A DNA stretch of 57,926 nucleotides from a virus (IMGVR_UViG_3300029305_004519:77541-135466); one strand, 5' to 3'; counted from the stretch's first letter, positions 228 to 10,608 are shown. Notes: generated from the letters alone by a model not told the origin. Translations and numbers: made by a program.

Positions 228-254
228 TGGTTGTTTCCCTCTCTTTCTGTATAT

Positions 255-283
255 ATTATACCACACTTTTATGGATTTGTCAA
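255..283 (-). promoter_or_regulatory. Sigma-70-type promoter (minus strand TTGACA-17-TATAAT)
   Basis: Plus tgtcaa at 278-283 and attata at 255-260 with a 17-bp spacer. It lies upstream of the nucleotidase gene. Confidence 0.7.
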
Positions 284-286
284 GGG

Positions 287-308
287 GTTTTTGAAAAGTT
301 TTTCAAAA
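287..308. promoter_or_regulatory. Perfect AT-rich palindrome TTTTTGAAAAGTTTTTCAAAAA abutting the -35; possible operator
   Basis: Arms of 9-10 bp are self-complementary around a central G. A related GGTTTTCAAAAA sequence sits upstream of the 2432-2460 promoter. Confidence 0.35.
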
Positions 309-375
309 ATTTTTTCGAGTTGCGGTGGTCGGTCATCTTGTTAGCCGTTAACCTTTCGCCCTTGACTACATCAAT

Positions 376-404
376 ATTATATCACAAATCGCACGATTTG
401 TCAA
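376..404 (-). promoter_or_regulatory. Sigma-70-type promoter with an 8-2-8 palindrome (ACAAATCG-CA-CGATTTGT) in its spacer; candidate operator
   Basis: Plus tgtcaa at 399-404 and attata at 376-381 with a 17-bp spacer. The palindrome spans 384-401. This promoter sits ~90 bp upstream of the next promoter with no ORF over 20 codons between them. Confidence 0.6.
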
Positions 405-478
405 GCACTTTTGGGAATTTTCTTTTCGTCAAGTTGCACAAACATTTGGCGAAAAAATATGTGGAATCGTGCAATTTG

Positions 479-545
479 CACAAAAACGGCGCGCGAGGGT
501 CCTTGGCGCGCCGGCAAAAAGAAAAGGGGTGAATTACTCCACCCC
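479..545 (-). terminator. Two tandem rho-independent terminators for the operon ending at 534
   Basis: Hairpin GGGGTG-loop-CACCCC at 526-545 spans the stop codon and is followed on the minus strand by a U-run. A GC hairpin GGCGCGC-loop-GCGCGCC at 488-512 is also followed by a U-run. Confidence 0.6.
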
Positions 546-761
546 ATAGAATTTATTATAGCTTGGATGAGCTTCAATTTTTTCTGCAAGTTTATCTTGC
601 TTAATCATAGCTCTCTGCATGATTTTCTCTTGAATACTTACTGAAAAGCGAGATACCCAACAACCAAAATCGCTGATTTTTTCAAAAACTCGCGCTGACA
701 ACGGGTTCTCTAAATGGTCGTATTTTTTTTCCAATCTTTTAAATGCCTTATCTTTGTTCAT
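534..761 (-). CDS. Hypothetical small protein (75 aa)
   Basis: Part of ORF 534..776. The internal Met MNKDK is preceded by a G-rich Shine-Dalgarno. Its ATG overlaps the TGA of the upstream gene (ATGA). Confidence 0.5.
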   Translation of the reverse strand: MNKDKAFKRLEKKYDHLENPLSARVFEKISDFGCWVSRFSVSIQEKIMQRAMIKQDKLAEKIEAHPSYNKFYGVE

Positions 762-877
762 ACCAAATCCCCCCAAAATGTAATATCATCGTAATCATTT
801 AAAGTAGGCTCATCACTGCACAATTGCCCAACGATAATTAGAGCAAAGAGTATAGAGAAAAAGATTACTGCTTTCAT
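758..877 (-). CDS. Hypothetical 39-aa peptide with a hydrophobic N-terminus (MKAVIFFSILFALIIVGQLC...), signal-peptide-like
   Basis: Its start and stop are both ATGA-overlapped with the flanking genes. It is below the ORF-track size cutoff. Confidence 0.3.
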   Translation of the reverse strand: MKAVIFFSILFALIIVGQLCSDEPTLNDYDDITFWGDLV

Positions 878-1041
878 ATCTCCACCTCTTTAATAATTAT
901 CATTTTTCGTACTTGGAAATATAATTTCCAACCCAGCAATTGTCGCAAATGTCTGCGCACTCTTTTTTCATTCCAAGTGCAGAACGCTCCTTTCATGAAG
1001 CCGTTGTCTATGGAATATTCAAACTGTTTAATCTGTTTCAT
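874..1041 (-). CDS. Hypothetical small protein (55 aa)
   Basis: Part of ORF 874..1056. Start MKQIK is preceded by TGGGGGTTAAAG, a G-run. Confidence 0.45.
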   Translation of the reverse strand: MKQIKQFEYSIDNGFMKGAFCTWNEKRVRRHLRQLLGWKLYFQVRKMIIIKEVEI

Positions 1042-1049
1042 ATCTTTAA

Positions 1050-1080
1050 CCCCCAATTATCATTTGAAATAAGTTCCACA
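1050..1080. repeat. Copy A of a 31-bp direct repeat (minus sense TGTGGAACTTATTTCAAATGATAATTGGGGG)
   Basis: It duplicates 1494-1524 except for one base. Here it encodes only an 11-aa remnant ORF MWNLFQMIIGG, which is the C-terminus of the 1489-1743 protein. Confidence 0.6.
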
Positions 1081-1083
1081 TAG

Positions 1084-1179
1084 TCATTCCGATTCAATGA
1101 GCCACTTGACGGCTTCTTTGATAGAAGTTGCCGCGCCAATCGTGCCGTGGTTTTCTTCATTGATTTGAATGATTGTCAT
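1084..1179 (-). CDS. Hypothetical 31-aa ORF (MTIIQINEENHGTIGAATSIKEAVKWLIESE)
   Basis: Its ATG is ATGA-overlapped with the stop of the 1176-1484 gene. Short and speculative. Confidence 0.2.
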   Translation of the reverse strand: MTIIQINEENHGTIGAATSIKEAVKWLIESE

Positions 1180-1484
1180 TCTTCGGTCTCCTTTTCTTCT
1201 TTGTATTTTATTGTACCTTTTTCGATACAAGTTTGTATGTTTCGAGCCAAGAAATTTTCATTGAACACTCCCGTCATAAAAACCAATCCGCAAAAAATAT
1301 TATACAGAGGAATGGCGCATTGTAAAAATAGCTTAAACCATTGAAACAGGCGCTCACCGAAAGAACGACGAATAGCGGAAATAAGGTTGTGTCTTTTGGC
1401 ATAAAAGCGAACTTCAATAGTCATCAGAAGAACGCTTGCAAGGGCAAACAGAATTGTGCATACATAAATGTTTAAGATAATCAT
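1176..1484 (-). CDS. Small membrane protein (102 aa, multiple hydrophobic helices)
   Basis: Part of ORF 1176..1499. Start MIILNIYV follows a GGAGGA Shine-Dalgarno that lies within repeat copy B. Confidence 0.55.
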   Translation of the reverse strand: MIILNIYVCTILFALASVLLMTIEVRFYAKRHNLISAIRRSFGERLFQWFKLFLQCAIPLYNIFCGLVFMTGVFNENFLARNIQTCIEKGTIKYKEEKETEE

Positions 1485-1488
1485 TTTT

Positions 1489-1743
1489 TTATCCTCCAAT
1501 TATCATTTGAAATAAGTTCCACATGTTCATCACCCAAAGGGCGATATTAAGAACCACAAGATTGATTTTGTGCGCTTCCCAACAGAAAGTGGATGCGATG
1601 CTTGCGCCAATGCACCATAGAATCGTCATATTGGCGCCCATCATGCCGCCTATGACGCATATCGTGTAGATTAAGGCGGTGAGGTCGGTGGCGTCAAACT
1701 CATAGGGGCGGTCAAGGTTGAAATAGTTAGCGATTTTCTTCAT
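1489..1743 (-). CDS. Small membrane protein (84 aa)
   Basis: ORF track entry. Hydrophobic throughout. Overlaps the upstream gene by 17 nt. Confidence 0.55.
   Translation of the reverse strand: MKKIANYFNLDRPYEFDATDLTALIYTICVIGGMMGANMTILWCIGASIASTFCWEAHKINLVVLNIALWVMNMWNLFQMIIGG
1494..1524. repeat. Copy B of the 31-bp direct repeat
   Basis: It encodes the C-terminal 11 aa and stop of the 1489-1743 gene and contains the GGAGGA Shine-Dalgarno of the next gene. Confidence 0.6.
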
Positions 1744-1915
1744 ATTTTACTGCTCCATTCGGATAAGTTACAATGCGGTTTTGTTCTTTGAGTATGCGTT
1801 CTATCCTACAACCGCAACCGCATTCCCAAACCTCTGTTGAATGAGAGGTGGTAAAATGGTCAATCCATAACAATTTGGCTTGTGCGGTGCTACCGCAATT
1901 TGGACATTTAATCAT
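1727..1915 (-). CDS. Zinc-ribbon protein (62 aa; CPNCG...CGCGC)
   Basis: ORF track entry. AAGAGG Shine-Dalgarno. ATGA overlap with the upstream gene. Confidence 0.55.
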   Translation of the reverse strand: MIKCPNCGSTAQAKLLWIDHFTTSHSTEVWECGCGCRIERILKEQNRIVTYPNGAVKYEENR

Positions 1916-2073
1916 TTTACTTTTACCTCTTTGAGTTTATAAACTTGTACTTTTTCCCAATAGCGTTGATAATAATGAACGCAATTTTTCATTGTCTCTT
2001 TGGGGCAATCAATAACAATATTGCGACTGACAGAGCCGTCGATATTGCTGACGATTAAAAGCCATTTAATCAT
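1912..2073 (-). CDS. Hypothetical 53-aa protein (MIKWLLIVSNIDGS...)
   Basis: GGAGGA Shine-Dalgarno. ATGA overlaps at both ends. Below the ORF-track cutoff. Confidence 0.4.
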   Translation of the reverse strand: MIKWLLIVSNIDGSVSRNIVIDCPKETMKNCVHYYQRYWEKVQVYKLKEVKVK

Positions 2074-2327
2074 TTTCTTTTATCCTCCCTATATCCAAAA
2101 TATCTGCGACCTTGGTAGTATTCGATATTGATATGCCCCATTCGTGCAAGATTGCGAAGTGCATTTTCCATGGCACTAATAGTGACATATCCCTCTCCAT
2201 CTTCATCGTGAGGAACGCGAGCATAGATTTCCTCTTTATGAAGATAGTATTCCTTGTTTTCTGCGAGAATGTTCTCTACCCAATAAAACGCATCTCTCGG
2301 TCTTTCAAGATATTCTTTTCTAATCAT
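2070..2327 (-). CDS. Hypothetical protein (85 aa; MIRKEYLERPRD...)
   Basis: Part of ORF 2070..2378, using the internal Met with a GAGAGG Shine-Dalgarno. The longer ORF would overlap the tRNA-like element. Confidence 0.5.
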   Translation of the reverse strand: MIRKEYLERPRDAFYWVENILAENKEYYLHKEEIYARVPHDEDGEGYVTISAMENALRNLARMGHINIEYYQGRRYFGYREDKRK

Positions 2328-2350
2328 GGTTATTACCTCTCTTTTTTTAG

Positions 2351-2418
2351 TGGGCGTGAGGGGAATCGAACCCCTCATTTAACTTTCACTCATAGCAGAG
2401 TGTTTTTCCTGCTCGCCC
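2351..2418 (-). tRNA. tRNA-like element, possibly a tRNA gene; the cloverleaf could not be completed by eye
   Basis: The minus-strand RNA has a canonical T-arm AGGGG-UUCGAUU-CCCCU and a 7-bp acceptor stem GGGCGAG/CACGCCC with one mismatch, plus discriminator A. It is 68 nt long. A CUA triplet is present centrally, but no canonical anticodon stem could be found. It lies immediately downstream of a consensus promoter as the first element of an operon. Confidence 0.45.
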
Positions 2419-2431
2419 TTACTGCTCTTAT

Positions 2432-2460
2432 ATTATACCACATTATGTAGGTTTTGTCAA
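2432..2460 (-). promoter_or_regulatory. Consensus sigma-70-type promoter (TTGACA-17-TATAAT) driving the tRNA-like element and downstream small genes
   Basis: Plus tgtcaa at 2455-2460 and attata at 2432-2437 with an exact 17-bp spacer. Confidence 0.75.
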
Positions 2461-2607
2461 GAGGTTTTCAAAAAATATTTGCAACTATTTTTCGACAAGT
2501 GGCTTCCGTCGTCCCCTACTCGTTGTTTCTGTTCTCAACTCGCGCGTGTAGTTTCTGTTCCAAACTTTCGTCTGTGCCGTTCACACTTGGTTCCTCTTAA
2601 CATTATT
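2461..2607 (-). ncRNA. Candidate small noncoding transcript between tandem promoters
   Basis: About 145 nt lie between two consensus promoters with no ORF or Shine-Dalgarno. It contains an internal direct repeat GAACAGAAAC that occurs twice. Confidence 0.2.
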
Positions 2608-2636
2608 ATTATACCATACAATCGGGAAAATGTCAA
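2608..2636 (-). promoter_or_regulatory. Consensus sigma-70-type promoter (upstream member of a tandem pair)
   Basis: Plus tgtcaa at 2631-2636 and attata at 2608-2613 with a 17-bp spacer. The TTGCACAAA upstream element is at about 2647-2655. Confidence 0.7.
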
Positions 2637-2697
2637 GTGGTAATTTTGCACAAACTTTCAGCGGAAAAATGGCGAGAAGTGTACAGAATGCACAAAT

Positions 2698-2774
2698 CGG
2701 AACGCGGCGGCCGGCCTCGTTCCGCCGGAGTTTTGGGTAAAAAAGAAAAACCCCAGAACTTACGAAAAGCTCTG
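2698..2774 (-). terminator. Tandem hairpins terminating the 2840-3142 transcript
   Basis: Hairpin CCAGAGC-loop-GTTCTGG at about 2752-2774 is followed on the minus strand by UUUUUCUUUUUU. A GC-rich hairpin GGAACG-loop-CGTTCC sits at 2699-2724. Confidence 0.5.
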
Positions 2775-2839
2775 GAAATTTGCTGAGAGGTCTAAGTCGC
2801 GGAAAATCGGACTAGGCGCGAACGCTTTCGTCCGTCAGC

Positions 2840-3142
2840 TTAATGGCTGAAGTGTTTCAACACGTCTTGCGCATCGTACTCATTTTCGTTCTCACTCATA
2901 ATTATAATTTTATTTTCCCATTCAGCAGGAATGCTTAAAATTTTAAGTGTTTCCTTTAAGAATGAAATCATATCCGAACAATCATTTTTTTGATTGTCAG
3001 AAAGAAAGAGAAGGGCGCCCAACTCTTCACAGTAAAGCGCGTGAAGGGGATAGTCTTGCGCCGAGAGGGTTTCCCAATCAAGGGGAGTGAGTGAAGATTC
3101 AAAATGAGTGATTACAAGAGCGTGGCTGAAGTGGTACTTCAT
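2840..3142 (-). CDS. Hypothetical protein (100 aa)
   Basis: ORF track entry. GGAGG Shine-Dalgarno. Its own promoter lies upstream. Confidence 0.55.
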   Translation of the reverse strand: MKYHFSHALVITHFESSLTPLDWETLSAQDYPLHALYCEELGALLFLSDNQKNDCSDMISFLKETLKILSIPAEWENKIIIMSENENEYDAQDVLKHFSH

Positions 3143-3188
3143 ACCGCGTGACCTCCTTGTATCTCTTATTTATTTTTCTTACATATAT

Positions 3189-3217
3189 ATTATATAATAA
3201 ATTTTTTAAAAAGTCAA
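3189..3217 (-). promoter_or_regulatory. Sigma-70-type promoter (TTGACT-17-TATAAT)
   Basis: Plus agtcaa at 3212-3217 and attata at 3189-3194. Confidence 0.65.
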
Positions 3218-3220
3218 AAG

Positions 3221-3240
3221 GCGCAGATTATGCTGCGCCC
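3221..3240 (-). terminator. Rho-independent terminator after the 3244-3447 gene
   Basis: Hairpin GGCGCAG-cataat-CTGCGCC is followed by UUUU on the minus strand. Confidence 0.5.
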
Positions 3241-3243
3241 CGA

Positions 3244-3447
3244 TTATTCATTCCATCGGCAACAGTTGGGGCAATAGTATTGCGTTCCATAACGACCACC
3301 ATTTGGAATTACTTTTTCTTCGCATACTTGACAGTATCCATTATTGAAGCGCTTTTCTGTCAAATGCTCTCCAAGTAAATAGGCGCCATACCAAGATATA
3401 ACTCCTATCACAAGGATTATAACAAGAATAATCCAAGAATGTTTCAT
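3244..3447 (-). CDS. Membrane-anchored zinc-ribbon protein (67 aa; one TM helix, then CQVC...CPNCC)
   Basis: Part of ORF 3244..3531, using the internal Met MKHSWIIL with an AAAGGAAAG Shine-Dalgarno. Confidence 0.5.
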   Translation of the reverse strand: MKHSWIILVIILVIGVISWYGAYLLGEHLTEKRFNNGYCQVCEEKVIPNGGRYGTQYYCPNCCRWNE

Positions 3448-3508
3448 TTTCTTTCCTTTCTGCGCATTTCCAAATTTTTCCAGTGCGCTCTTTTTATGTA
3501 GAGGGAGA

Positions 3509-3928
3509 TTACTCTCCCTCGTCCTCGTCAATCATGCGATCCTCACATTCTTCATTGTCGCATTCATCGCAATTGAAGTCGCACTCATCATCGAGTTCAT
3601 CCTCATCATCATCGAGGAAATAGTTGGGAATGTCGGGGAACTCGCCCGCTTTGTTGGCACGGACATTGTGAACCTTGACCTTATTCGTAAGGTCAGATTT
3701 GGCAAGAGGTTCAAACACATCGATCTTGCGACGGAGAACCGAACCATCGTTGCGGAATACCGATACCTGATAGCCACCCCTGACTTTCAACACATAGGGA
3801 GAAGAAAGTCGGTCTTTTTCGCAGGTATTGAAGCGGATATTTGCATACGCATCTTGCACTGCGGTTTTGAGGTCTGCATAGTCAACTCCCGTACAGATAA
3901 GGCGGTAAACATAGTTTTTCTTTTTCAT
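3509..3928 (-). CDS. Hypothetical protein (139 aa) with an extremely acidic C-terminal tail (DDDEDELDDECDFNCDECDNEECEDRMIDEDEGE)
   Basis: ORF track entry. GAGAGGA Shine-Dalgarno. Candidate DNA-mimic or anti-restriction protein by composition. Confidence 0.6.
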   Translation of the reverse strand: MKKKNYVYRLICTGVDYADLKTAVQDAYANIRFNTCEKDRLSSPYVLKVRGGYQVSVFRNDGSVLRRKIDVFEPLAKSDLTNKVKVHNVRANKAGEFPDIPNYFLDDDEDELDDECDFNCDECDNEECEDRMIDEDEGE

Positions 3929-3964
3929 AATAAAAATCCTCTCTTTTCTTTTGATTACATATAT

Positions 3965-3993
3965 ATTATATCATAAGATATGTACTTTGTCAA
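3965..3993 (-). promoter_or_regulatory. Consensus promoter with a duplicated -35 (TTGACTATTGACA)
   Basis: Plus tgtcaa at 3988-3993 and attata at 3965-3970 with a 17-bp spacer. Confidence 0.7.
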
Positions 3994-4553
3994 TAGTCAA
4001 GTTGCACAAACTTTTGATTATTTATTTGTGCAACTTGACGATGGCGCTTGGCTATTTTGTTAATATAATGCTCTGCATAGTACTTTGCGGCTTGCGCAAT
4101 GTCATTGCAGTTTGCTGATAGTTTTGCTTTACGTATAAGTTCCTCAAACTCATGTTCGGCGCGCCATTCTTGTGCGATAATGTTCTGCTCTTGGGTTACC
4201 TGCTCCCATTTGAGAATCTCAATATCAAATCCATGGTCATTGAAATTATCGACTTTATCTTCAAGGCGGAAGCAATATTGTACCTCTTTGGACATAAGAT
4301 ATGCCCATCCAACAGTGATAGGAATCCATATTAAATCCAACCAAGTGACCGATATTGAGAGGGAAAGTATAAGTCCAACCCCATAAATTACTATCATTGC
4401 TACGAAAAGCCAGCAACTCAAATAATATTTGATACTCATGTTTAATTCTTTTTCTGTCATGGGGCGCTCATGAGTGATTTCTTTATAGTCAAACTCATTG
4501 GTTTTGGTATTGAATGTTGGGTAGTACATTGTGCGCTTTACTGTTTTAGCCAT
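3990..4553 (-). CDS. Membrane protein (187 aa; two central TM helices, C-terminal coiled-coil-like region)
   Basis: ORF track entry. GAGAGGAATA Shine-Dalgarno. Confidence 0.6.
   Translation of the reverse strand: MAKTVKRTMYYPTFNTKTNEFDYKEITHERPMTEKELNMSIKYYLSCWLFVAMIVIYGVGLILSLSISVTWLDLIWIPITVGWAYLMSKEVQYCFRLEDKVDNFNDHGFDIEILKWEQVTQEQNIIAQEWRAEHEFEELIRKAKLSANCNDIAQAAKYYAEHYINKIAKRHRQVAQINNQKFVQLDY
3996..4039. repeat. Perfect 15-bp inverted repeat GTCAAGTTGCACAAA / TTTGTGCAACTTGAC separated by 14 bp
   Basis: Its arms contain the conserved promoter-upstream element TTTGTGCAA in both orientations. It lies inside the 3' end of the 3990-4553 CDS. Confidence 0.5.
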
Positions 4554-4584
4554 TGTATATTCCTCTCTTTTCTTTGGTATCTAT

Positions 4585-4613
4585 ATTATATCATATTTAT
4601 CGGGAAAAGTCAA
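4585..4613 (-). promoter_or_regulatory. Sigma-70-type promoter (TTGACT-17-TATAAT)
   Basis: Plus agtcaa at 4608-4613 and attata at 4585-4590. It shares an extended ~45-bp homology with the 8578-8606 promoter (gtcaatgaataaaYtgtaa). Confidence 0.7.
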
Positions 4614-4668
4614 TGAATAAACTGTAAACTAAATGTAAACAAAAAATGAATGAGAGGTAGGGCTTGCG

Positions 4669-4702
4669 CATAAATCGGCTCGACGCGCCCCACGTCGAGC
4701 CG
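4669..4702 (-). terminator. Rho-independent terminator
   Basis: A 10-bp GC stem CGGCTCGACG-loop-CGTCGAGCCG is followed by AUUUAUG on the minus strand. Confidence 0.6.
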
Positions 4703-4726
4703 CTGAAAAATTGAAGGGCGAGTTTT

Positions 4727-5216
4727 CACTCACCCTTGATAGGTCTGCCGAGAATATCGTGATAATCGTAGTAGCGATACATCGACCACACTTTTTCATC
4801 TTTGACTTTGGAACCATCATACACTACAAGAGTGCCAAGGAAGATGCCACCCAGCCGCTCAATCTCTTCTTTGACAACTGCCACGGTTTTACCGCTGAAA
4901 TAGCTATCATCAATGAAAAGAAATTCGCGCCCTTGATGCGATTTTGGAATGGTTCAAGATTGATTTTAGATGGGTCATGGCGAAAACCACCCGGAACGAG
5001 CAGGTCAATTTCAATACCAAGGTTATGCATAGACAACCCAATCTCACCGCTTGCAATGGTTAGCGCATTATATGCAAGTATATGCGATTTTGCAATGAGG
5101 TCTTGCAGAATTTCATAATCAAACTTGACCGCTTTATCAAGTTCCGAAAAGAAGATTTGACCACCGATGAATTTTTCTAAAAGTTCATTTACAGTTTCAA
5201 AAATTTTATTTTTCAT
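4727..5216 (-). pseudogene. Phosphoribosyltransferase-domain gene disrupted by a -1 frameshift (or a sequencing error) near 4925-4935
   Basis: Frame A (ORF 4824..5216) encodes the N-terminal part. The -1 frame continues with a PRPP-binding motif FLFIDDSYFSGKTVAVVKEEIERLGG...PIKGE and stops at about 4727. The join lies within aatttcttttcattg. Confidence 0.5.
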
Positions 5217-5220
5217 TTCG

Positions 5221-5559
5221 TTATACCCCCAAACTGATTGCTATTGCTTTATCAACTTCCCACATTTGTTTACTATTTGCGATGCCGACAAAGGTTTTTA
5301 GTCTGCGCTTGTCAAGGGTTCGCATTTGCTCACATTCGACCATGCTCTCCTTGCATAAACCGCAAGAGGTATCGAGTAATACCTGTGTTGGCAGACGGAA
5401 TTTATGCGTGCGACTGGTGATGGCCGCCGCAATGACGATAGGCGCGCGTCTGTTGCCTATATCATTAGATACAATCAACACTGGGCGCAAACCGCCTTGC
5501 TCACTGCCGACTACTGGTGAAAGGTCTGCGTAATAAATTTGTCCTCTTTTGATTTCCAT
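5221..5559 (-). CDS. mazF: MazF/PemK/EndoA-family toxin endoribonuclease (112 aa)
   Basis: RGQIYYADLSPVVGSEQGGLRPVLIVSNDIGNRRAPIVIAAAITS...ECEQMRTLDKRRL closely parallels Bacillus EndoA/NdoA and E. coli MazF motifs. AAGGGGG Shine-Dalgarno. Confidence 0.85.
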   Translation of the reverse strand: MEIKRGQIYYADLSPVVGSEQGGLRPVLIVSNDIGNRRAPIVIAAAITSRTHKFRLPTQVLLDTSCGLCKESMVECEQMRTLDKRRLKTFVGIANSKQMWEVDKAIAISLGV

Positions 5560-5572
5560 ATGTACCCCCTTG

Positions 5573-5594
5573 GGTAGAGCCTTACGGCTCTACC
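5573..5594 (-). other. Perfect 9-bp intercistronic hairpin (GGTAGAGCC-ttac-GGCTCTACC) with the upstream gene's stop codon in its loop
   Basis: It lies between the 69-aa gene and the mazF ribosome-binding site. No U-run follows, so it is probably not a terminator. Confidence 0.5.
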
Positions 5595-5791
5595 TCTATA
5601 ACCTCAATGCTTTGTTTTACTACGAACTCCCCGCAAATTTCGCCCGTAAAATTGTTGACGATAATAACATTGGTTTCTTTGTTGATTGCCATGCCATTAG
5701 CAAAATACTTTGCATGGTTAAGGTCATCAAAATCCGCAATGTGCTTGCATTCGCAATACACTCCATAGTCGAGAATGTCAAATCTAATCAT
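5582..5791 (-). CDS. Hypothetical 69-aa protein upstream of mazF (candidate non-canonical antitoxin)
   Basis: ORF track entry. AAAGGAAAGG Shine-Dalgarno. It has no recognisable MazE/AbrB or RHH signature. Confidence 0.5.
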   Translation of the reverse strand: MIRFDILDYGVYCECKHIADFDDLNHAKYFANGMAINKETNVIIVNNFTGEICGEFVVKQSIEVIEVEP

Positions 5792-5827
5792 AAGTTTATA
5801 CCTTTCCTTTCTTTTGTTTACATATAT

Positions 5828-5856
5828 ATTATATCATATTGATTGCCGTTTGTCAA
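5828..5856 (-). promoter_or_regulatory. Consensus promoter (TTGACA-17-TATAAT) with the upstream TTGACTATTGACA / TTTGTGCAA element
   Basis: Plus tgtcaa at 5851-5856 and attata at 5828-5833. Confidence 0.7.
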
Positions 5857-5888
5857 TAGTCAATTTGCACAAAGTTTTTGGGTGGGAC

Positions 5889-6200
5889 TTATGCACAATA
5901 CACAAGCCCCATATCGCGCCAGCGGAGAACAGAGATTTGATTACAAGCGCGCCCAACTTCAAGGGCTTCATGCTTTGTTGCTACTCTATGCGATAAGTCG
6001 ATATAGTAGATGCCAGCGCTGAACCAAATACCGCAGTTACCGCCATATGCCTTGACCGCGTTAATGGCTTCGCGGGGGTCGGTGGTTTCAATGCCCTCTG
6101 TTGCGACTTGATACCCAGACTTGTAAATGATGCGCTTACCGCCTTTAAGGGTCATTCCGTCATTATCTTTCAGATTGCGAATGGAGCGAATGTTGATCAT
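5889..6200 (-). CDS. Hypothetical protein (103 aa)
   Basis: ORF track entry. AAAGGAAAGG Shine-Dalgarno. Confidence 0.55.
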   Translation of the reverse strand: MINIRSIRNLKDNDGMTLKGGKRIIYKSGYQVATEGIETTDPREAINAVKAYGGNCGIWFSAGIYYIDLSHRVATKHEALEVGRACNQISVLRWRDMGLVYCA

Positions 6201-6233
6201 AATATGTATTTTCCTTTCCTTTATTGTATCTAT

Positions 6234-6262
6234 ATTATATCATAAAAGCGGGAAAATGTCAA
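6234..6262 (-). promoter_or_regulatory. Consensus promoter
   Basis: Plus tgtcaa at 6257-6262 and attata at 6234-6239 with a 17-bp spacer. Confidence 0.7.
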
Positions 6263-6323
6263 TAGTCAAATGTAACAAAGTTTTGGAGAAAAAAAGATGG
6301 TGATTTGTACAGATTGCACAAAA

Positions 6324-6380
6324 CGGCTCGCGGCGGAGGATCGCGAGCCGGGCAAAGAAAAAAGGTGCCTGTTGGCACCT
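6324..6380 (-). terminator. Tandem rho-independent terminators after the 6380-6565 gene
   Basis: Hairpin CGGCTCGCG-loop-CGCGAGCCG is followed by UUUUGUG. Hairpin GGTGCC-aaca-GGCACC is followed by UUUUUUCUUUG on the minus strand. Confidence 0.65.
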
Positions 6381-6565
6381 TAATCAATGATGAGGATATT
6401 CTCTTGCGGGAGCCCGAGGGAGATTGCATACCAAAGGGCATCGTCTACACTCTCGCAATCTTTTAGTTTAATTATTTTGAATTCATTTCTGACACGACAT
6501 TCATAGTTAGTTTTGTCAGTAATGCACCATCCATAGAAAAAATCTTTCCATAAAATATATTGCAT
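6380..6565 (-). CDS. Hypothetical protein (61 aa)
   Basis: ORF track entry. AGGGGGTAG Shine-Dalgarno. Confidence 0.5.
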   Translation of the reverse strand: MQYILWKDFFYGWCITDKTNYECRVRNEFKIIKLKDCESVDDALWYAISLGLPQENILIID

Positions 6566-6579
6566 TTTTCTACCCCCTA

Positions 6580-6816
6580 TCAGTAAGTGTCATAGCCGAG
6601 GCAATCGCCTTCGGCATCGGTAATAAGAGCAACGAAACAAGCGTATTCAAAGTTTTCATCAGCGGTTGCTTGGCAACGAGTGATGAAATCTTCCATTTCT
6701 TCGCCTTCTTCCTTTTTCCATTCTACAAGGAAAATTTCACCGCTTTCCCTGTCATAGAATTTGGCGTCAAGCCATTCGCCAACTTTTGTCTGTTCCCAAA
6801 TCTGTTCGTTTGTCAT
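6580..6816 (-). CDS. Highly acidic small protein (78 aa; 22 D/E residues against 4 K/R)
   Basis: ORF track entry. AGAGAGG Shine-Dalgarno. Candidate DNA mimic by composition only. Confidence 0.55.
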   Translation of the reverse strand: MTNEQIWEQTKVGEWLDAKFYDRESGEIFLVEWKKEEGEEMEDFITRCQATADENFEYACFVALITDAEGDCLGYDTY

Positions 6817-6860
6817 TTGTGTTTACCTCTCTTTTATGTATTTGTCCTTTTGACACTCTT

Positions 6861-6889
6861 ATTATATCATAAATAAATGTATTTGTCAA
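6861..6889 (-). promoter_or_regulatory. Consensus promoter
   Basis: Plus tgtcaa at 6884-6889 and attata at 6861-6866. Confidence 0.7.
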
Positions 6890-6922
6890 GTATTTTTGCA
6901 AAGTTTTTTTGAAATATCGAAC

Positions 6923-7043
6923 AAGTTTACAAAATGTTCATAATTTAACAGCAGGTCTTAAACTACTGCTTTTACGGGTAACAAAATAGAAATGAATGGT
7001 TCATAATTTTGCGTATAAAAGTTTACAAACTGTTCACAAAATG
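6923..7043. repeat. Three iteron/operator-like repeats (GTTTACAAAATGTTCATAATTT, ATGGTTCATAATTTTG, GTTTACAAACTGTTCACAAAATG) upstream of the 6861-6889 promoter
   Basis: Direct reading gives a shared core TTTACAAnnTGTTCAyAA. Related copies lie at 8655-8715 upstream of another promoter. Confidence 0.5.
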
Positions 7044-7045
7044 CA

Positions 7046-7081
7046 AAAAGCGCGCCGCCCCGGGTGTCAGCGGCGCGGCGA
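7046..7081 (-). terminator. GC-rich terminator hairpin after the 7100-7384 gene
   Basis: GCGCGCCGC-loop-GCGGCGCGG is followed by CUUUUUGCAUUUU on the minus strand. Confidence 0.5.
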
Positions 7082-7099
7082 TGGAAAGAGGACTGCTTG

Positions 7100-7384
7100 T
7101 TAGCAGTCCCCTGTGTAGCAACCCATGTAAGGGTCAAAGCCAGTTTCATCGACGTCAGGCTCATAGTCCTCATCTTCCTCGTCCCAATCCTCATTGTAGT
7201 AGAGGCTTTCGGTGCCGTGGTGGTAGATGATTTGCGCCATAGGGGTAGCCTCGTCTTTGGTGAGGTGGTCATCTGCGACAAGGTCAACCAACCGCGCGAT
7301 TGCAATGGTATGGGGGTCTTCAAGCCCGAACTCCGAGCAGGCGAGGTTGTGGCAGTTGATGAGCGAAAGTTTGGTGTAATCCAT
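7100..7384 (-). CDS. Hypothetical protein (94 aa) with an acidic C-terminus; paralog of the 8116-8316 protein
   Basis: ORF track entry. AAAGGAGAA Shine-Dalgarno. Shares the motif ACxxxGLEDxHTIAIA with the 8116-8316 product. Confidence 0.55.
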   Translation of the reverse strand: MDYTKLSLINCHNLACSEFGLEDPHTIAIARLVDLVADDHLTKDEATPMAQIIYHHGTESLYYNEDWDEEDEDYEPDVDETGFDPYMGCYTGDC

Positions 7385-7387
7385 GGT

Positions 7388-7645
7388 AGTTCTCCTTTAT
7401 GTAGATTGAATTGGCTCTGCTCCGTCCATCCGAGGCGGTCGGCTCCTATGAGCGGACTGTGCCATCCTCGGCATCTTTGCCCTACTTGGTTTATATAGCG
7501 ATGGGCGTCTAACACGGTCTTTGCTGACCTCTGACTGCGCTCTGCGGAGAGCGGGCTCTTTACACCGCTTGCAAGGGTACTCGTTTCTTCAAGTTGTGGC
7601 TAAACTCGGTTGGTAGCGCTCCCAACGGCTTTCCCCTTGACACCT
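7388..7645 (-). ncRNA. Long (~250 nt) GC-rich untranslated leader or candidate structured RNA between the promoter and the 7100-7384 gene
   Basis: No ribosome-binding-site-preceded ORF. Several internal complementary segments such as CCGAGG/CCTCGG. The track ORFs here (6958..7515, 7064..7498) lack Shine-Dalgarno sites and look like compositional artefacts. Confidence 0.25.
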
Positions 7646-7647
7646 AT

Positions 7648-7676
7648 ATTATATCACACTTTCGGGCAAAAGTCAA
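7648..7676 (-). promoter_or_regulatory. Sigma-70-type promoter (TTGACT-17-TATAAT)
   Basis: Plus agtcaa at 7671-7676 and attata at 7648-7653. Confidence 0.7.
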
Positions 7677-7736
7677 TAGGTAATATTGCACAAACTTTTG
7701 GCGCCAAATTTGTGCATCTTGCACAAGAAGGCAAAA

Positions 7737-7800
7737 TCGTCGCGCCACGACCGCTGGCGCGACGGCGAAGGGAAAGAGGGCTTTTCAGCCCTCTCTTTGT
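7737..7800 (-). terminator. Tandem terminator hairpins after the 7785-8081 gene
   Basis: AGAGGGC-loop-GCCCTCT at about 7776-7797 and GTCGCGCCA-loop-TGGCGCGAC at about 7741-7767 are followed by GAUUUUGCC. Confidence 0.55.
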
Positions 7801-8081
7801 TTCAATGCGCGATAAGCATCGCGCTCTTCTTTGGTATCAAACCATGTCTTTTCGCCGTACATCCAAATCATATCAACGGAGTCGACACAGTGCACAAGAG
7901 CGAAGCCTTTATGCGCTTGTTGATGTGTGGCTCTAATGGCATATGGGCTACCATTCAAGCGTGCGGTTGAAACGCTCTCTCTGGTAGTTGCAATTTGATA
8001 TTCTTCAATAAAAGCAGGCGTTGCAAGAAAGGGACGTTTTACGCCAAGGACTTTGTAAAGCTCTCTAATAGAATGTTTCAT
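7785..8081 (-). CDS. Hypothetical protein (98 aa)
   Basis: ORF track entry. AGGAGGA Shine-Dalgarno. Confidence 0.55.
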   Translation of the reverse strand: MKHSIRELYKVLGVKRPFLATPAFIEEYQIATTRESVSTARLNGSPYAIRATHQQAHKGFALVHCVDSVDMIWMYGEKTWFDTKEERDAYRALKQREG

Positions 8082-8115
8082 GATATATCCTCCTGTTCGA
8101 TGGGGTAGAGGACTA

Positions 8116-8316
8116 TTAGTCCTCTACCATATGGTATGCGCCGATTGCTTGCATATAGATCGCACGACAGACCATTGCCGCATCCCAACATTTGGCGCCG
8201 CCGGCTTCATGCATTTCTACAATTCCGGCTATTGCAATGGTGTGCTTATCCTCAAGCCCAAGGTCAGTGCAGGCTTTATCCAGCCACTGCCGAGGAGTCA
8301 TGAAATAGTTGCTCAT
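8116..8316 (-). CDS. Hypothetical protein (66 aa); paralog of the 7100-7384 protein
   Basis: ORF track entry. GGAGGTG Shine-Dalgarno. Carries the GLEDKHTIAIA motif. Confidence 0.55.
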   Translation of the reverse strand: MSNYFMTPRQWLDKACTDLGLEDKHTIAIAGIVEMHEAGGAKCWDAAMVCRAIYMQAIGAYHMVED

Positions 8317-8328
8317 ATGCCCACCTCC

Positions 8329-8520
8329 TTATGCGCCGAGGGCTCTAAAACGGAGCCCTTCATATGTGCCGTGATAAAAGCGCCACTTGCCTGCGCCGTA
8401 GCCATAACGAACATTCCAACGCGTATTGCGTGTAACGTGACGGCGGAGCGCATTGCCCGTCATAGAGCCAAGGACTTCGCCTGTCTCAAGATTATAAGCC
8501 CAGTGTTTGCAGTTAGTCAT
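8329..8520 (-). CDS. Basic small protein (63 aa)
   Basis: ORF track entry. GGAGGT Shine-Dalgarno. Confidence 0.5.
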   Translation of the reverse strand: MTNCKHWAYNLETGEVLGSMTGNALRRHVTRNTRWNVRYGYGAGKWRFYHGTYEGLRFRALGA

Positions 8521-8577
8521 AATAGACCTCCAAGTATGTATTCAGAGGGGGAGCGTCCTCCGCCCTTCTGTGTCTAT

Positions 8578-8606
8578 ATTATATCACATAAAGGCGCAAA
8601 AGTCAA
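8578..8606 (-). promoter_or_regulatory. Sigma-70-type promoter (TTGACT-17-TATAAT)
   Basis: Plus agtcaa at 8601-8606 and attata at 8578-8583. Confidence 0.7.
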
Positions 8607-8654
8607 TGAATAAATTGTAACTTATATATGAATATTTTATGAACTTTGCGGGAC

Positions 8655-8715
8655 GGGAAGTGTTCACATTTGGTTCAAACAACTGAAACAAAAAATTTAC
8701 AATTTGTTAACAAAT
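8655..8715. repeat. Operator-like repeats related to the 6923-7043 set (GTGTTCACATTTGGTTCAAACAA, TTTACAATTTGTTAACAAATC)
   Basis: Same TTTACAA..TGTT.A.AA core, found upstream of a different early promoter. Confidence 0.4.
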
Positions 8716-8721
8716 CTTAAA

Positions 8722-8800
8722 AGCGGCGCGTCGCGGGGGATGACGCGCCGGCCGGCACTTCAAGAAGGCGCAACCCTATGACCGGGCGCGCCTTCTTCGC
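8722..8800 (-). terminator. GC-rich terminator hairpin(s) after the 8815-8964 gene
   Basis: GGCGCGTC-loop-GACGCGCC is followed by UUUUAAGAUUU. A second hairpin GAAGGCGC-loop-GCGCCTTC follows. Confidence 0.5.
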
Positions 8801-8814
8801 TGATATGGGATGCC

Positions 8815-8964
8815 TTATACTATACACACATAGGTTCCGGCTCTTGTCCCTTCAGCCTGATACACTTCGGTAATATCAATATTACCGCTATTGCTGTCAA
8901 ATACCCGGATGGGCATATTCTCGTCATATTGGTTAAGCAATTCTTTCAACTCTTTTATAGTCAT
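8815..8964 (-). CDS. Hypothetical 49-aa protein
   Basis: Part of ORF 8815..9006, using the internal Met MTIKEL with a GGAGGGAG Shine-Dalgarno. Confidence 0.4.
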   Translation of the reverse strand: MTIKELKELLNQYDENMPIRVFDSNSGNIDITEVYQAEGTRAGTYVCIV

Positions 8965-8981
8965 GATATAACTCCCTCCTA

Positions 8982-9146
8982 TTAATCGCGGTCTTTCTTC
9001 TTCCAAATCCCTATGAGGATTGAAATCTCATTGCAAATAGTTACAAATACCGCAACCAATGCAATCATAAGTGGGGTAACATTAAACATGCCACTGCTAT
9101 ACATTAAAAGCAGAATAGTCAACCCTATCAAATACATTCTTTCCAT
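8982..9146 (-). CDS. Hypothetical 54-aa membrane peptide (two hydrophobic segments)
   Basis: AAGAGG Shine-Dalgarno. Its start overlaps the upstream stop (TAATG). Below the track cutoff. Confidence 0.35.
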   Translation of the reverse strand: MERMYLIGLTILLLMYSSGMFNVTPLMIALVAVFVTICNEISILIGIWKKKDRD

Positions 9147-9418
9147 TATGCCCAACCTCTTTCTTTCTTAATTTGCTCATATCGAGCTTTATTCTCTGCC
9201 TCAATGCGCGCCTTATCATAGACGCGCGCCTTGATTTGAGTATATCCATATTTACGCATGTCGCGCACTGTCATATGACGTTTTGCTAACATCTTCGTGA
9301 CAGCCTTTTGTTGATATGCGACTTTATTCGCCATATAGTCTACCCATGACGCAACTTCTATCAATTCGGAAAGCGGTCTATAACCGCTTTCCGATATAAT
9401 GGTGACTTGAATCTGCAT
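9146..9418 (-). CDS. Hypothetical protein (90 aa)
   Basis: ORF track 9146..9421 trimmed to its ATG. AGAGGTAAT Shine-Dalgarno. TGATG overlap with the Lar gene. Confidence 0.55.
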   Translation of the reverse strand: MQIQVTIISESGYRPLSELIEVASWVDYMANKVAYQQKAVTKMLAKRHMTVRDMRKYGYTQIKARVYDKARIEAENKARYEQIKKERGWA

Positions 9419-9630
9419 CACATTACCTCTATACTTTCATTGTTCCATGCTTCAATGGCGAGGTCTACGGTATAGCCGGTTTTGCCTGCCGCTTCACAAG
9501 TGGGGCATTGCATAAAATAACCCTCATCCCAACCGGCAAACTCCCGGTTGATTCTATGCAATTGAGTTTTACAGTAGGGGCAGGGGCGGATATAATCCGC
9601 CTGCCCTTTTTCGATTGCTTTAATTTTCAT
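9418..9630 (-). CDS. lar: Lar-family restriction alleviation protein (70 aa zinc ribbon)
   Basis: CPYCKT...CPTCEAAG...AIEAWN matches the Lar family pattern CPxC..C..C with AIEAWN. Confidence 0.7.
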   Translation of the reverse strand: MKIKAIEKGQADYIRPCPYCKTQLHRINREFAGWDEGYFMQCPTCEAAGKTGYTVDLAIEAWNNESIEVM

Positions 9631-9824
9631 TTATTTAATTCTCCTTTCGCTAATGCCAAAGTATAGGCGTGATAATCATCGCAAAATTTTTCAATCGAAA
9701 GAATTTCGCAATCCTGTTCGATAATATGTGCCAATGCGGTATGCATGCCGCCGCCCGATACAGTATAACTATCACATGGAGTGGTAATTCGATAACCTGC
9801 TTTTTCTTCATATCTTGTAAACAT
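9627..9824 (-). CDS. Hypothetical protein (65 aa)
   Basis: ORF track entry. GAAAGGAAGG Shine-Dalgarno. Confidence 0.5.
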   Translation of the reverse strand: MFTRYEEKAGYRITTPCDSYTVSGGGMHTALAHIIEQDCEILSIEKFCDDYHAYTLALAKGELNK

Positions 9825-9846
9825 ATAAATACCTTCCTTTCTATGT

Positions 9847-9867
9847 GGGGTAGGTTTAACCTACCCC
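9847..9867 (-). other. Perfect 10-bp hairpin (GGGGTAGGTT-t-AACCTACCCC) with the stop codon of the 9856-10107 gene in its loop, just upstream of the next ribosome-binding site
   Basis: Same arrangement as the hairpin at 5573-5594. Confidence 0.4.
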
Positions 9868-10107
9868 GTTTATTTTCATGGCGTCAAGCATCTCGCCCGC
9901 GCCCTGTTCGACTTCTTCCGCCAATGCGGTGAAAAAATCATCTTCCGATTCTTCCACCACGGGAGCGGTAACAAGCTCCACATGAGAGCTAACGAAAAAC
10001 AATTCGTTTACCTCTTGAATTGTTTCACCATTTACTAAAATGGTTTTGTGGGGGTCGCATTTTTGCAATTCTTGAATAAGTTGAGAAACAGACATTGACA
10101 TGATTTT
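9856..10107 (-). CDS. Hypothetical acidic protein (83 aa)
   Basis: ORF track 9856..10119 trimmed to Met MSMSVSQ with an AAAGGAA Shine-Dalgarno. Confidence 0.5.
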   Translation of the reverse strand, partial: KIMSMSVSQLIQELQKCDPHKTILVNGETIQEVNELFFVSSHVELVTAPVVEESEDDFFTALAEEVEQGAGEMLDAMKINGVG

Positions 10108-10138
10108 GATTCCTTTCATATGTAAAAAATTTTTTTGA

Positions 10139-10240
10139 TTAATTGAACAGACAACCCAACAGATGAACGACTAAACCGAACAGACAAACACCAATAAATG
10201 CGCCAATAGATAAGAGTACTAAAAGCAATTCAAGTGGCAT
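10139..10240 (-). CDS. Hypothetical 33-aa hydrophobic peptide (MPLELLLVLLSIGAFIGVCLFGLVVHLLGCLFN)
   Basis: GGAAGTG Shine-Dalgarno. It is the first gene after the leftward divergent promoter. Confidence 0.3.
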   Translation of the reverse strand: MPLELLLVLLSIGAFIGVCLFGLVVHLLGCLFN

Positions 10241-10293
10241 TTTTTTCACTTCCTTTCAATTTGATTTTTTGCCGTGTTTACCACCGCAAGACT

Positions 10294-10322
10294 ATTTTAC
10301 CACAAAGCCAAGCATTTGTCAA
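10294..10322 (-). promoter_or_regulatory. Leftward promoter of the divergent control region (TTGACA-17-TAAAAT with an extended TG)
   Basis: Plus tgtcaa at 10317-10322 and atttta at 10294-10299. The TTGCACAAA element is inverted-repeated at about 10336 and about 10373. Confidence 0.6.
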
Positions 10323-10547
10323 CACTTTTTTCATTGTCATTTTGCACAAATTTTTTGGGGGTTTGAGAATTTTTTTTGTGCAAACTACACACAATTATAA
10401 GAGGTATTTTTGGGATTTTGAAATTTCTATTTTCTTCCAAAGCCTTTCCTACGGCAATTCACTCCTAGAAAATTCATTTCATTTCAAAAGACGAACAGGA
10501 TTTTTATAGCTCTCTCTCCAAACCAATAATCCAACGAAAAATTATCA

Positions 10548-10557
10548 CACGCATATG
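10548..10557. promoter_or_regulatory. Perfect palindrome CGCATATGCG about 25 bp upstream of the rightward promoter's -35; candidate operator
   Basis: Read directly from the sequence. Confidence 0.3.
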
Positions 10558-10579
10558 CGATCCCTAACCTCGACCGTTC

Positions 10580-10608
10580 TTGACAACTTTAAAATTTTTT
10601 GGTAAAAT
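10580..10608 (+). promoter_or_regulatory. Rightward promoter (TTGACA-17-TAAAAT, extended -10 TGgTAAAAT) driving the recoded gene block
   Basis: TTGACA at 10580-10585 and TAAAAT at 10603-10608. AAAGGAG Shine-Dalgarno and ATG at 10646 follow. Confidence 0.65.

Follow-up and report, generated by a model that had tools for sequence, protein, structure and literature searches.

A predicted array of sigma-A-type early promoters with a phased three-part operator in a TAG-recoded phage

We analysed a stretch of 57,926 nucleotides (nt) from a virus (IMGVR_UViG_3300029305_004519:77541-135466), referred to below as the window, with positions counted from its first letter. Pattern scanning confirmed that the region 255-10608 is a dense array of predicted strong sigma-A-type early promoters. 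About half of these promoters carry, upstream of the -35 hexamer, a phased three-part operator whose layout recurs before promoters in the chromosomes of Oscillospirales, and the edge of the array coincides with the boundary between standard-code and TAG-recoded genes. We consider it probable that the early region is under host sigma-A and that the operator is bound by a protein of the host. An initial annotation of the window had seen the array; it missed three features, namely that TAG is sense on the other strand, that the array runs past the left edge and that the phased operator is shared with host genomes.

The promoter array and the code boundary

Using the pattern TTGACW-N14-TGN-TATAAT with at most one mismatch, we found 14 matches in the 57,926 bases, against 0.13 expected from dinucleotide-preserving shuffles. 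All 14 lie within 255-10608 and none in the 47 kilobases (kb) of structural genes. Thirteen are on the minus strand, including all 12 that the initial annotation had listed, and one, at 10580, is divergent on the plus strand (Table 1). Eight promoters agree with the hexamers at 12 of 12 positions and four carry TTGACT (3189, 4585, 7648 and 8578). The spacer is 17 base pairs (bp) throughout, and the extended -10 TG is present at 13 of the 14, missing only at 3189. Start codons with a strong ribosome-binding site follow at 25-60 nt, the exceptions being the tandem pairs 2608/2432 and 376/255, in which the first promoter is followed by ~90-130 nt without an open reading frame (ORF). Outside these contacts, TTGACTATTGACA flanks three promoters, TG(A/G)TATAATAT is common, and promoters 4585 and 8578 form one subfamily with ~45 bp in common. 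The initial annotation was correct about this subfamily; its claim of nearly identical flanks at the -10 and -35 holds in part, and 'near-identical' overstates the likeness of the cassettes, which share the sigma-A contacts, the TG and short flanks but fall into at least three upstream classes.

On the plus strand, the genes from 10646 to 57926 contain 0-62 in-frame TAG codons each, and TAG is read as sense. With this reading the coverage by long ORFs rises from 7,759 amino acids (aa) under the standard code to 18,658 aa, and the fragments from 10646 on fuse into a normal phage late region, with a 2,901-aa tape-measure-sized ORF (62 TAG) and a 1,763-aa ORF (18 TAG). The terminase has nine in-frame TAG codons and the portal four, and the PHROG families matched in this region are terminase, portal and virion proteins. 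The 31 early genes end in TAA (18) or TGA (13) and in no other stop. As TAG is sense from 10646 on, the promoter block would be the standard-code early region of a code-15 phage, and the code boundary coincides with the edge of the promoter array. ARAGORN called no tRNA in the window, which is only part of the genome, and thus no CTA suppressor; Rfam gave nothing meaningful over the window or over 1-10.7 kb, at gathering or permissive thresholds.

The divergent promoter precedes the first recoded gene, 10646-11761. Its product has no Pfam, NCBIfam or PDB sequence match, so that the label 'sigma factor' comes from one PHROG family. As a query against viral contigs it found no relative, probably as a result of the in-frame TAG codons. 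With its own promoter at 10580-10608 and seven TAG codons, this gene could be transcribed early, with its translation waiting for the code switch.

Judged by its sequence, the window phage is a large siphovirus of Bacillota, distantly phAss-1-like, with a genome of probably ~120-135 kb, and it is most likely a gut phage of Clostridia, order Oscillospirales. The nearest terminase is from an uncultured human faecal fragment (71%), and the next (42-46%) are from large Bacillota siphoviruses: Alicyclobacillus KKP_3916, Enterococcus H1/EF1, Geobacillus E3 and phAss-1 (42%). Megablast with the early region gave no match in the phage collection. Some 30 related contigs, many of them 100-180 kb long, came out of IMG/VR by one pattern scan and two scans seeded with proteins. 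In most of 25 uncultured relatives the density of strict promoters is 9-29 per 20 kb, and almost all of these point the same way as the genes. The window shows the array incompletely: in L028-L031, its closest relatives, the array extends past the HAD-like gene cut by the left edge by no less than 3 kb and five promoters. In phAss-1, 12 strict promoters and nine copies of the operator 8-mer lie at 114.9-130.8 kb, and the cultured Enterococcus phage H1 (L177, OP534061) has 6-9 promoters before small genes at 92.9-99 kb. The H1 run (92.9-102.7 kb) ends with a HAD-like hydrolase and is without the TTGTGCAA element; H1 could serve as an experimental stand-in for the architecture. Altogether, 383 distinct promoter instances share upstream A/T tracts, TTGACAAAt, the TG, TATAAT and an A-rich start region.

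A phased operator and its copies in bacterial chromosomes

The operator has the form TTGTGCAw-N1-TTGCACAA-N16/26-TTGTGCAA. Reading away from the -35, one meets a gap, TTGTGCAA, 16 or 25-26 bp of spacer, TTGCACAA, a single base, TTGTGCAw and then the second terminator of the preceding cassette. The gap is 8-9 bp, except for 19 bp at P10294 and 29 bp at P376, whose proximal site begins 37 bp upstream of the -35. Exact copies of TTGCACAAA number 12 in the window, 10 of them in early intergenic DNA. The operator stands at seven of the 13 minus-strand promoters (376, 2608, 3965, 5828, 6234, 7648 and 10294), GTTTACA/TGTAAAC-type repeats take its place at three (4585, 6861 and 8578), and the remaining three (255, 2432 and 3189) have neither. 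The conserved upstream element of the initial annotation is therefore real, with inverted pairs at 4002-4033 and 10342-10383, but belongs to seven of the 13 promoters only.

Related early regions totalling 421 kb hold 282 copies of the operator 8-mer, whereas permuted 8-mers average 12.5. Its spacers are discrete. Between TTGCACAA and TTGTGCAA they measure 16 bp in 24 cases, 15 in four, 26 in 10 and 25 in four, whereas in the order TTGTGCAA-Nx-TTGCACAA the spacer is 1 bp (11 cases). Relative to the -35, the proximal TTGTGCAA starts at -16/-17 (34 cases), -26/-27 (13) or -37/-38 (8), positions that are one helical turn apart. Taken together, the inverted symmetry, the discrete spacing and the helical phasing are what one expects of a protein-binding operator, not of a mere A/T-rich UP element. 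While A/T tracts upstream are general in the lineage, the TTGTGCAA arms and the discrete spacers are features beyond those of an UP element.

TTGCACAA-N16-TTGTGCAA was sought in 185,579 species genomes in a single scan, whose order is not defined; it gave at least 120 loci, and the counts that follow refer to the 120 matches listed. About 92 are Clostridia, mainly Oscillospirales, and the clostridial groups include Acutalibacteraceae, Oscillospiraceae, Ruminococcaceae, Ruminococcus bromii and Faecalibacterium. Among the carriers of the repeat are R. bromii ATCC 27255 and Pseudoruminococcus massiliensis. Only L138 is a fragment of this phage lineage. Copies outside any stop-free frame of at least 120 aa, which we took as intergenic, make up 76% in Clostridia vs 7% in other taxa. 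A gap of exactly 6 nt separates the end of the repeat from TTGACA-16..18-TATAAT at no fewer than 13 loci, and at 11 of them a small peptide gene was called. Several of these loci also have a third arm (TTGTGCAA/T, one base, TTGCACAA), which is the layout of P7648, P376, P2608 and P6234. Among host orthologues the arms are kept, with fully diverged spacers. From the same module standing before sigma-A promoters in Oscillospirales chromosomes, we infer that this clade encodes a DNA-binding protein for it and, going one step further, that the phage has an Oscillospirales host.

The small gene encodes a conserved but unannotated peptide of 37-44 aa in Oscillospirales (...KEI..KFSFKKL.KVIELDAL...) and was seen at L061, L083, L099, L109, L115, L126, L141, L143, L145, L146, L148 and L158. 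The gene is a monocistronic unit throughout, amid varying neighbours, and in each case the three-part TTGTGCAA operator and a consensus promoter precede it. Pfam and NCBIfam gave no match for the peptide, which has only six database relatives, all without names. At six further loci (L079, L084, L087, L103, L167 and L173) the repeat lies 19-22 nt upstream of a TetR-family gene of 219-223 aa that diverges from a 494-aa aminotransferase-like gene; here the repeat is probably the regulator's own operator. Proteins of the TetR type that bind as two dimers form one class of candidates for binding the phage operator. This TetR-family gene itself was rejected as a candidate regulator, as the phage loci hold no homologue. 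Other host repeat sites precede ECF sigma factor and transporter genes. Text searches of the literature gave no relevant factor for the motif, and the DnaA box, the Spo0A box and the sites of Rex, CRP/FNR, LexA, NrdR, BirA and CytR differ from it in core or geometry.

The promoters of the GTTTACA/TGTAAAC type have repeats of their own. Upstream of P4585 stands TGTAAAC-N4-TGTAAAC (4623, 4634) and upstream of P8578 stands ATTTACAATTTGTTAA (8695); we take the direct repeats at 4620-4640 and 8695-8710 to resemble response-regulator sites. The stretch 6860-7052 is 91% identical to L028 and L030, vs 72-81% for the flanking coding DNA, and a small hairpin lies within it. This non-coding stretch could be an operator of another kind or an RNA that has escaped recognition.

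Readings of the operator and of the cassettes

In the reading we prefer, the host housekeeping sigma-A RNA polymerase would start on phage entry at no fewer than 13 consensus extended -10 promoters, all leftward, and would transcribe ~11 short cassettes, whose tiny genes have strong ribosome-binding sites. Most cassettes end in one or two intrinsic terminators, so that each unit would be expressed separately. At seven promoters, the operator between the upstream terminator and the -35 would offer a tight palindrome, TTGTGCAw-N1-TTGCACAA, and a third copy, TTGTGCAA, 16 or 25-26 bp off, which usually ends 8-9 bp before the -35 or one to two turns farther. A dimeric or tetrameric DNA-binding protein of the host, sitting on this operator, would tie early phage transcription to the regulatory state of the host. 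Since the core promoters match the consensus as they are, and since the A/T-rich zone from -40 to -75 lies under the operator, modulation or repression (e.g. by blocked UP-element contacts) is likelier than activation. More tentatively, the lineage may have copied the operator (TTGTGCAw-N1-TTGCACAA-N16/26-TTGTGCAA) from Oscillospirales hosts into about half of its early promoters, and a host regulator, with a regulon that includes the 37-44 aa peptide gene, may gate the first genes.

Several points weigh against this reading. Six of the 13 promoters are without the operator, so promoter function does not depend on it. Between operator and -35, host promoters have 6 nt and the phage 8-9 nt, giving a different rotational setting. 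The host matches were chosen by exact arms, which brings ascertainment bias, and the scan of host genomes covers the matches listed only (at least 120 loci). The 11-13 tiny-gene loci are orthologues and therefore represent few independent events; no conserved neighbour was found at these sites, and the TetR-family gene at six loci is the only conserved regulator gene found next to the host repeats in general, so that no binding protein could be named. Transcription start sites and early timing are predicted from sequence. As only three of ~30 early proteins fall in named families, 'host takeover' is an analogy, and a takeover function of the genes is suggested by their layout and those three products only.

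The operator could instead serve a phage-encoded regulator, either for early shut-off or as a lysogeny-type repressor, with its gene outside the window; the bacterial copies would then be cellular relatives or prophage remnants. More than half of the genome lies outside the window, a palindromic multi-site architecture with helical phasing is typical of repressor operators, the repeat stands at many promoters of one temporal class, and consensus promoters need repression more than activation. Dispersed sites for one repressor are known from the C1 operators of phage P1 and the stoperators of cluster A mycobacteriophages, in which one short asymmetric word occurs at many units, alone or in inverted pairs, and is bound by the lysogeny repressor of the phage; stoperators lie inside transcription units. 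The window sites, in contrast, are upstream of the -35 and recur in bacterial chromosomes. Furthermore, no recognisable DNA-binding protein is found among the genes of the early region, the three-part layout stands before chromosomal genes on long contigs with ordinary metabolic genes, and one single match of the 120 listed is homologous to the phage. We therefore regard a phage-encoded regulator as unlikely.

Another explanation is that the terminator-operator-promoter junctions are chiefly recombination modules, used in illegitimate or homologous exchange, and that regulation is incidental. Compared with L028, L030, L031 and L034, the window has a conserved backbone made up of the genes at 7100, 6580, 5889, 5582, 5221, 2840, 1727 and 1489 and the HAD-like gene. 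Around this backbone the presence and order of cassettes differ in close relatives. L028 and L030 are without the cassettes of P4585 and P3965, an additional cassette of L028 falls between positions 2493 and 2607 of the window, and gene 2070-2330, which follows the 2840 gene in the window, precedes it in L030 and there belongs to another cassette. As the initial annotation had anticipated, by this comparison the cassettes are units of gain and loss between related phages. The blocks of homology end at promoter or terminator modules (2427, 2607, 3231-3240, 6364-6368, 7052 and 7775-7794), and P2432 is 97% identical to its L028 counterpart while the genes just downstream differ.

The promoters themselves tell against exchange as the main explanation. 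Orthologous promoters hold private variants across genomes, such as TTGTTACA before gene 5889-6200 in the window and L028-L031, and the whole 376/255 tandem unit. Such variants point to vertical inheritance and not to homogenisation within a genome, and concerted evolution of the promoters was rejected on this ground. The common stretches are short (30-60 bp), and distant relatives keep the hexamers and the TG with no flanking similarity, as expected from selection on function and not from copying. With cassettes that differ, promoters that keep private variants and distant relatives that keep the sigma-A contacts only, promoter likeness seems to be maintained mainly by selection on function. 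Recombination between promoter repeats, which the initial annotation had put forward as the shuffling mechanism, is not supported, and we find it quite improbable that the junctions are chiefly recombination modules.

A third explanation is an A/T-rich UP element, or curved DNA, that boosts sigma-A transcription through the alpha C-terminal domain with no dedicated factor. Over the 383 promoters the consensus upstream of the -35 is indeed made of A/T tracts (aAAaAAttTt.aAAAAA), the repeat has an A/T-rich spacer that contains runs of A and of T, and six window promoters are complete by sequence criteria without the repeat. The conserved words, however, are 8-mers that contain G and C, strictly inverted and spaced by 1, 16 or 26 bp, and host orthologues keep the arms while their spacers diverge fully, which leaves this explanation a slim chance. 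That a phage-specified polymerase or sigma factor reads the promoters in place of host sigma-A is hardly credible: a gene with a 'sigma factor' PHROG match (10646-11761) does adjoin the array, but the motif is the exact housekeeping consensus, found also at bacterial promoters with the same operator and absent from the 47 kb of structural genes, and the sigma-like gene has the same type of promoter and seven TAG codons, so that it would not be made before the code switch.

Cassettes, neighbouring features and known systems

The early region comprises ~11 cassettes of 1 to ~10 genes, with ~30 genes of 33-187 aa in all (Table 1). The start/stop coupling of tiny genes noted initially is borne out by 4-nt overlaps, e.g. 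at 9627-9630, 2070-2073, 1912-1915 and 874-877. Three of the ~30 early proteins are recognisable: PHROG scans of 30 proteins named a Lar-like (9418-9630), a MazF-like (5221-5559) and a 5'-nucleotidase-like product (1-230), and Pfam named PemK only. Gene 5889-6200 is the most conserved early gene across the lineage, and gene 3990-4553 encodes a membrane protein. Riboswitches or small RNAs were considered after P7648, P2608 and P376 and rejected, as these segments fold no better than shuffles (z = -0.1, 0.04 and -0.3).

Terminators, G+C-rich hairpins with a T-run on the minus strand, stand at eight of the 11 cassette ends, in tandem pairs at seven. The 15 hairpins have energies of -12 to -18 kcal/mol where computed singly, and some of the second hairpins have weak T-runs, e.g. 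ATTTATGC and ATTTGTGC. No terminator was found after genes 5889-6200 and 3990-4553, nor between the promoters of the pairs 2608/2432 and 376/255. The earlier description of each cassette as insulated is hence overstated, although it applies to most.

Table 1. Positions of predicted promoters, operators, cassettes and terminators in the window
Feature	Position	Strand	Description
P10294	10294-10322	-	TTGACA-17-TGgTAAAAT; cassette 1
P8578	8578-8606	-	TTGACT-17-TGaTATAAT; class II upstream region, ATTTACAATTTGTTAA at 8695
P7648	7648-7676	-	TTGACT-17-TGaTATAAT; 255-nt unstructured leader, then gene 7100-7384
P6861	6861-6889	-	12/12 + TG; genes 6580-6816, 6380-6565
P6234	6234-6262	-	12/12 + TG; gene 5889-6200
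P5828	5828-5856	-	12/12 + TG; genes 5582-5791, 5221-5559, 4726-5216
P4585	4585-4613	-	TTGACT-17-TGaTATAAT; TGTAAAC repeats at 4623, 4634; gene 3990-4553
P3965	3965-3993	-	12/12 + TG; genes 3509-3928, 3244-3447
P3189	3189-3217	-	TTGACT-17-TATAAT, no TG; gene 2840-3142
P2608	2608-2636	-	12/12 + TG; first of tandem pair; ~130 nt without ORF or significant fold downstream
P2432	2432-2460	-	12/12 + TG; second of tandem pair; tRNA-like element and ~10 genes, 2330 down to 534
P376	376-404	-	12/12 + TG; first of tandem pair kept in relatives L028-L031
P255	255-283	-	12/12 + TG; 5'-nucleotidase/HAD-like gene 1-230 crossing left edge
Divergent promoter	10580-10608	+	TTGACA-17-TGgTAAAAT; upstream of 10646-11761
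Sigma-like gene	10646-11761	+	7 in-frame TAG; PHROG family labelled 'sigma factor'; first recoded gene
Divergent control region operator	10342-10383		TTGCACAA 10342-10349, N26, TTGTGCAA 10376-10383
Operator P7648	7686-7726		TTGCACAA 7686-7693, N16, TTGTGCAT 7710-7717, N1, TTGCACAA 7719-7726 (plus-strand reading)
Operator P6234	6271-6321		Variant TGTAACAA 6271-6278, N26, TTGTACAG 6305-6312, N1, TTGCACAA 6314-6321
Operator P5828	5865-5905		TTGCACAA 5865-5872, N16, degenerate distal pair 5889-5896 and 5898-5905
Operator P3965	4002-4033		TTGCACAA 4002-4009, N16, TTGTGCAA 4026-4033; overlaps 3' end of ORF 3990-4553
Operator P2608	2646-2695		TTGCACAA 2646-2653, N25, GTGTACAG 2679-2686, N1, ATGCACAA 2688-2695
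Operator P376	434-483		TTGCACAA 434-441, N25, TCGTGCAA 467-474, N1, TTGCACAA 476-483
Conserved non-coding region upstream of P6861	6890-7052		Direct repeats GTTTACAAANTGTTCA at 6925, 7021
Cassette 1	8815-10243	-	7 genes: 10139-10243, 9856-10101, 9627-9824, 9418-9630 (Lar-like), 9146-9421, 8982-9146, 8815-8964
Cassette 2	7785-8520	-	Genes 8329-8520, 8116-8316, 7785-8081
Cassette 1 terminators	8797-8762, 8753-8722	-	Tandem
Cassette 2 terminators	7796-7773, 7764-7738	-	Tandem
Cassette 3 terminators	7112-7087, 7080-7053	-	Tandem
Cassette 4 terminators	6381-6362, 6350-6324	-	Tandem; -12.7 and -16.9 kcal/mol
Cassette 6 terminators	4737-4714, 4702-4676	-	Tandem
Cassette 8 terminator	3241-3218	-	Single; T-run merges into -35 of P3189
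Cassette 9 terminators	2774-2754, 2724-2698	-	Tandem
Cassette 10 terminators	545-526, 513-487	-	Tandem

A tRNA-like element lies at 2345-2425 on the minus strand, between the P2432 start, which it directly follows, and gene 2070-2330; L028 and L030 have other genes at this junction. The element comprises an acceptor-like stem, a D-like hairpin and a perfect T-arm (GAGGGGTTCGATTCCCCTC), lacks an anticodon arm and folds well (z = -3.0); neither ARAGORN nor Rfam called it, and it is absent from the relatives. L028-L031 hold a tRNA-like gene at a conserved spot of the array, just past the left edge of the window (L028 14256-14325, L029 8109-8180, L030 14202-14271 and L031 14005-14076), for which the ARAGORN calls vary between Thr-agt, Pro-agg and undetermined with a 4-base anticodon tcgt. 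The two do not align, and the element at 2345-2425 was rejected as a counterpart of these odd tRNAs. Many more distant relatives have a tRNA-Lys(ttt) within the array.

Gene 4726-5216 on the minus strand is phosphoribosyltransferase-like by eye, with the motif ...REFLFIDDSYFSGKT..., and is in two reading frames, split near 4930-4945, which could reflect an assembly error, a pseudogene or programmed frameshifting. The MazF/PemK-type toxin gene (5221-5559, minus strand; Pfam E = 5e-31) belongs to an early cassette. Upstream of it lie a 69-aa ORF and a strong hairpin at ~5562-5583 without a T-run, and no recognisable antitoxin was found beside it in the 5221-5791 region. In several IMG/VR contigs of 115-180 kb the array abuts the contig end (the start in L029, L046 and L022; the end in L041 and L025). 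These ends could be true genome termini, as in SPO1 and T5, or assembly breaks at repeated modules.

The layout is similar to that of SPO1's module for host takeover (genes 37-60), a ~12-kb cluster of small early genes in several short operons, whose strong sigma-A promoters and ribosome-binding sites are read by host RNA polymerase immediately on entry (PMC6873191; PMC13401047). The window is alike in its small early genes, several operons, strong sigma-A promoters and ribosome-binding sites, and the resemblance to SPO1 drawn by the initial annotation stands at the level of layout (~30 small genes in ~11 cassettes) but not of homology, as PHROG scans of 30 proteins and Pfam found no homologue of gp37-gp60 in the window. 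Moreover, SPO1 is a myovirus with the standard code and has no counterpart of the TTGTGCAA operator, whereas the window phage is a TAG-recoded siphovirus.

By analogy, the operator is closest in logic to the Spo0A boxes of the phi29 family. In this virulent phage of a spore-forming Firmicute, host Spo0A boxes lie at several early promoters, binding and repression by Spo0A were demonstrated experimentally, and early transcription depends on the state of the host (PMC2731898). The motifs differ (TGTCGAA in phi29 vs TTGTGCAA in the window), as do the arrangements, with tandem boxes in phi29 and a palindrome plus a distant half-site in the window. The protein is known for phi29, whereas for the window operator both the host protein and repression are predicted.

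For phAss-1, TAG recoding, siphovirus traits and a predicted Clostridia (Eubacteriales) host have been reported, with no description of promoters, terminators or an early region (PMC10607447). phAss-1, of the proposed Phassvirus, and the window phage are both large siphoviruses with a tape-measure gene of ~3000 aa and TAG as sense in structural genes, but they are distant (42% terminase identity). According to a model of recoding, with which the standard-code promoter block of the window agrees, infection starts with standard-code-compatible genes, and recoded genes are translated only after a code switch (Borges et al., bioRxiv 10.1101/2021.08.26.457843). The model covers coding and has no promoter arrays or operators, whereas in the window the code boundary is also the array boundary.

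The promoter array is an ordinary feature of large lytic Firmicute phages, though unusually clean. Although strong early promoters in arrays are well known from model phages, to our knowledge none have been reported from large recoded siphoviruses of gut Clostridia, and we know of no such phage with a cultured host. Two things are worth following up: the new part, a phased three-part operator that the phage has in common with chromosomes of Oscillospirales, and the match between the edge of the array and the code boundary. The array marks the early region precisely and gives the model of the code switch as a timer a concrete locus, and it is a source of very strong, compact promoter-terminator parts for Clostridia. 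The operator is a sequence-only clue to the host clade, Oscillospirales, and a pointer to a host regulon. If the preferred reading is true, it would be a second, independent case of a virulent phage placing its early promoters under a host regulator, with a host-state switch of the phi29/Spo0A kind in uncultured gut Clostridia, and the motif would be a computational handle for host assignment and for the discovery of the regulator.

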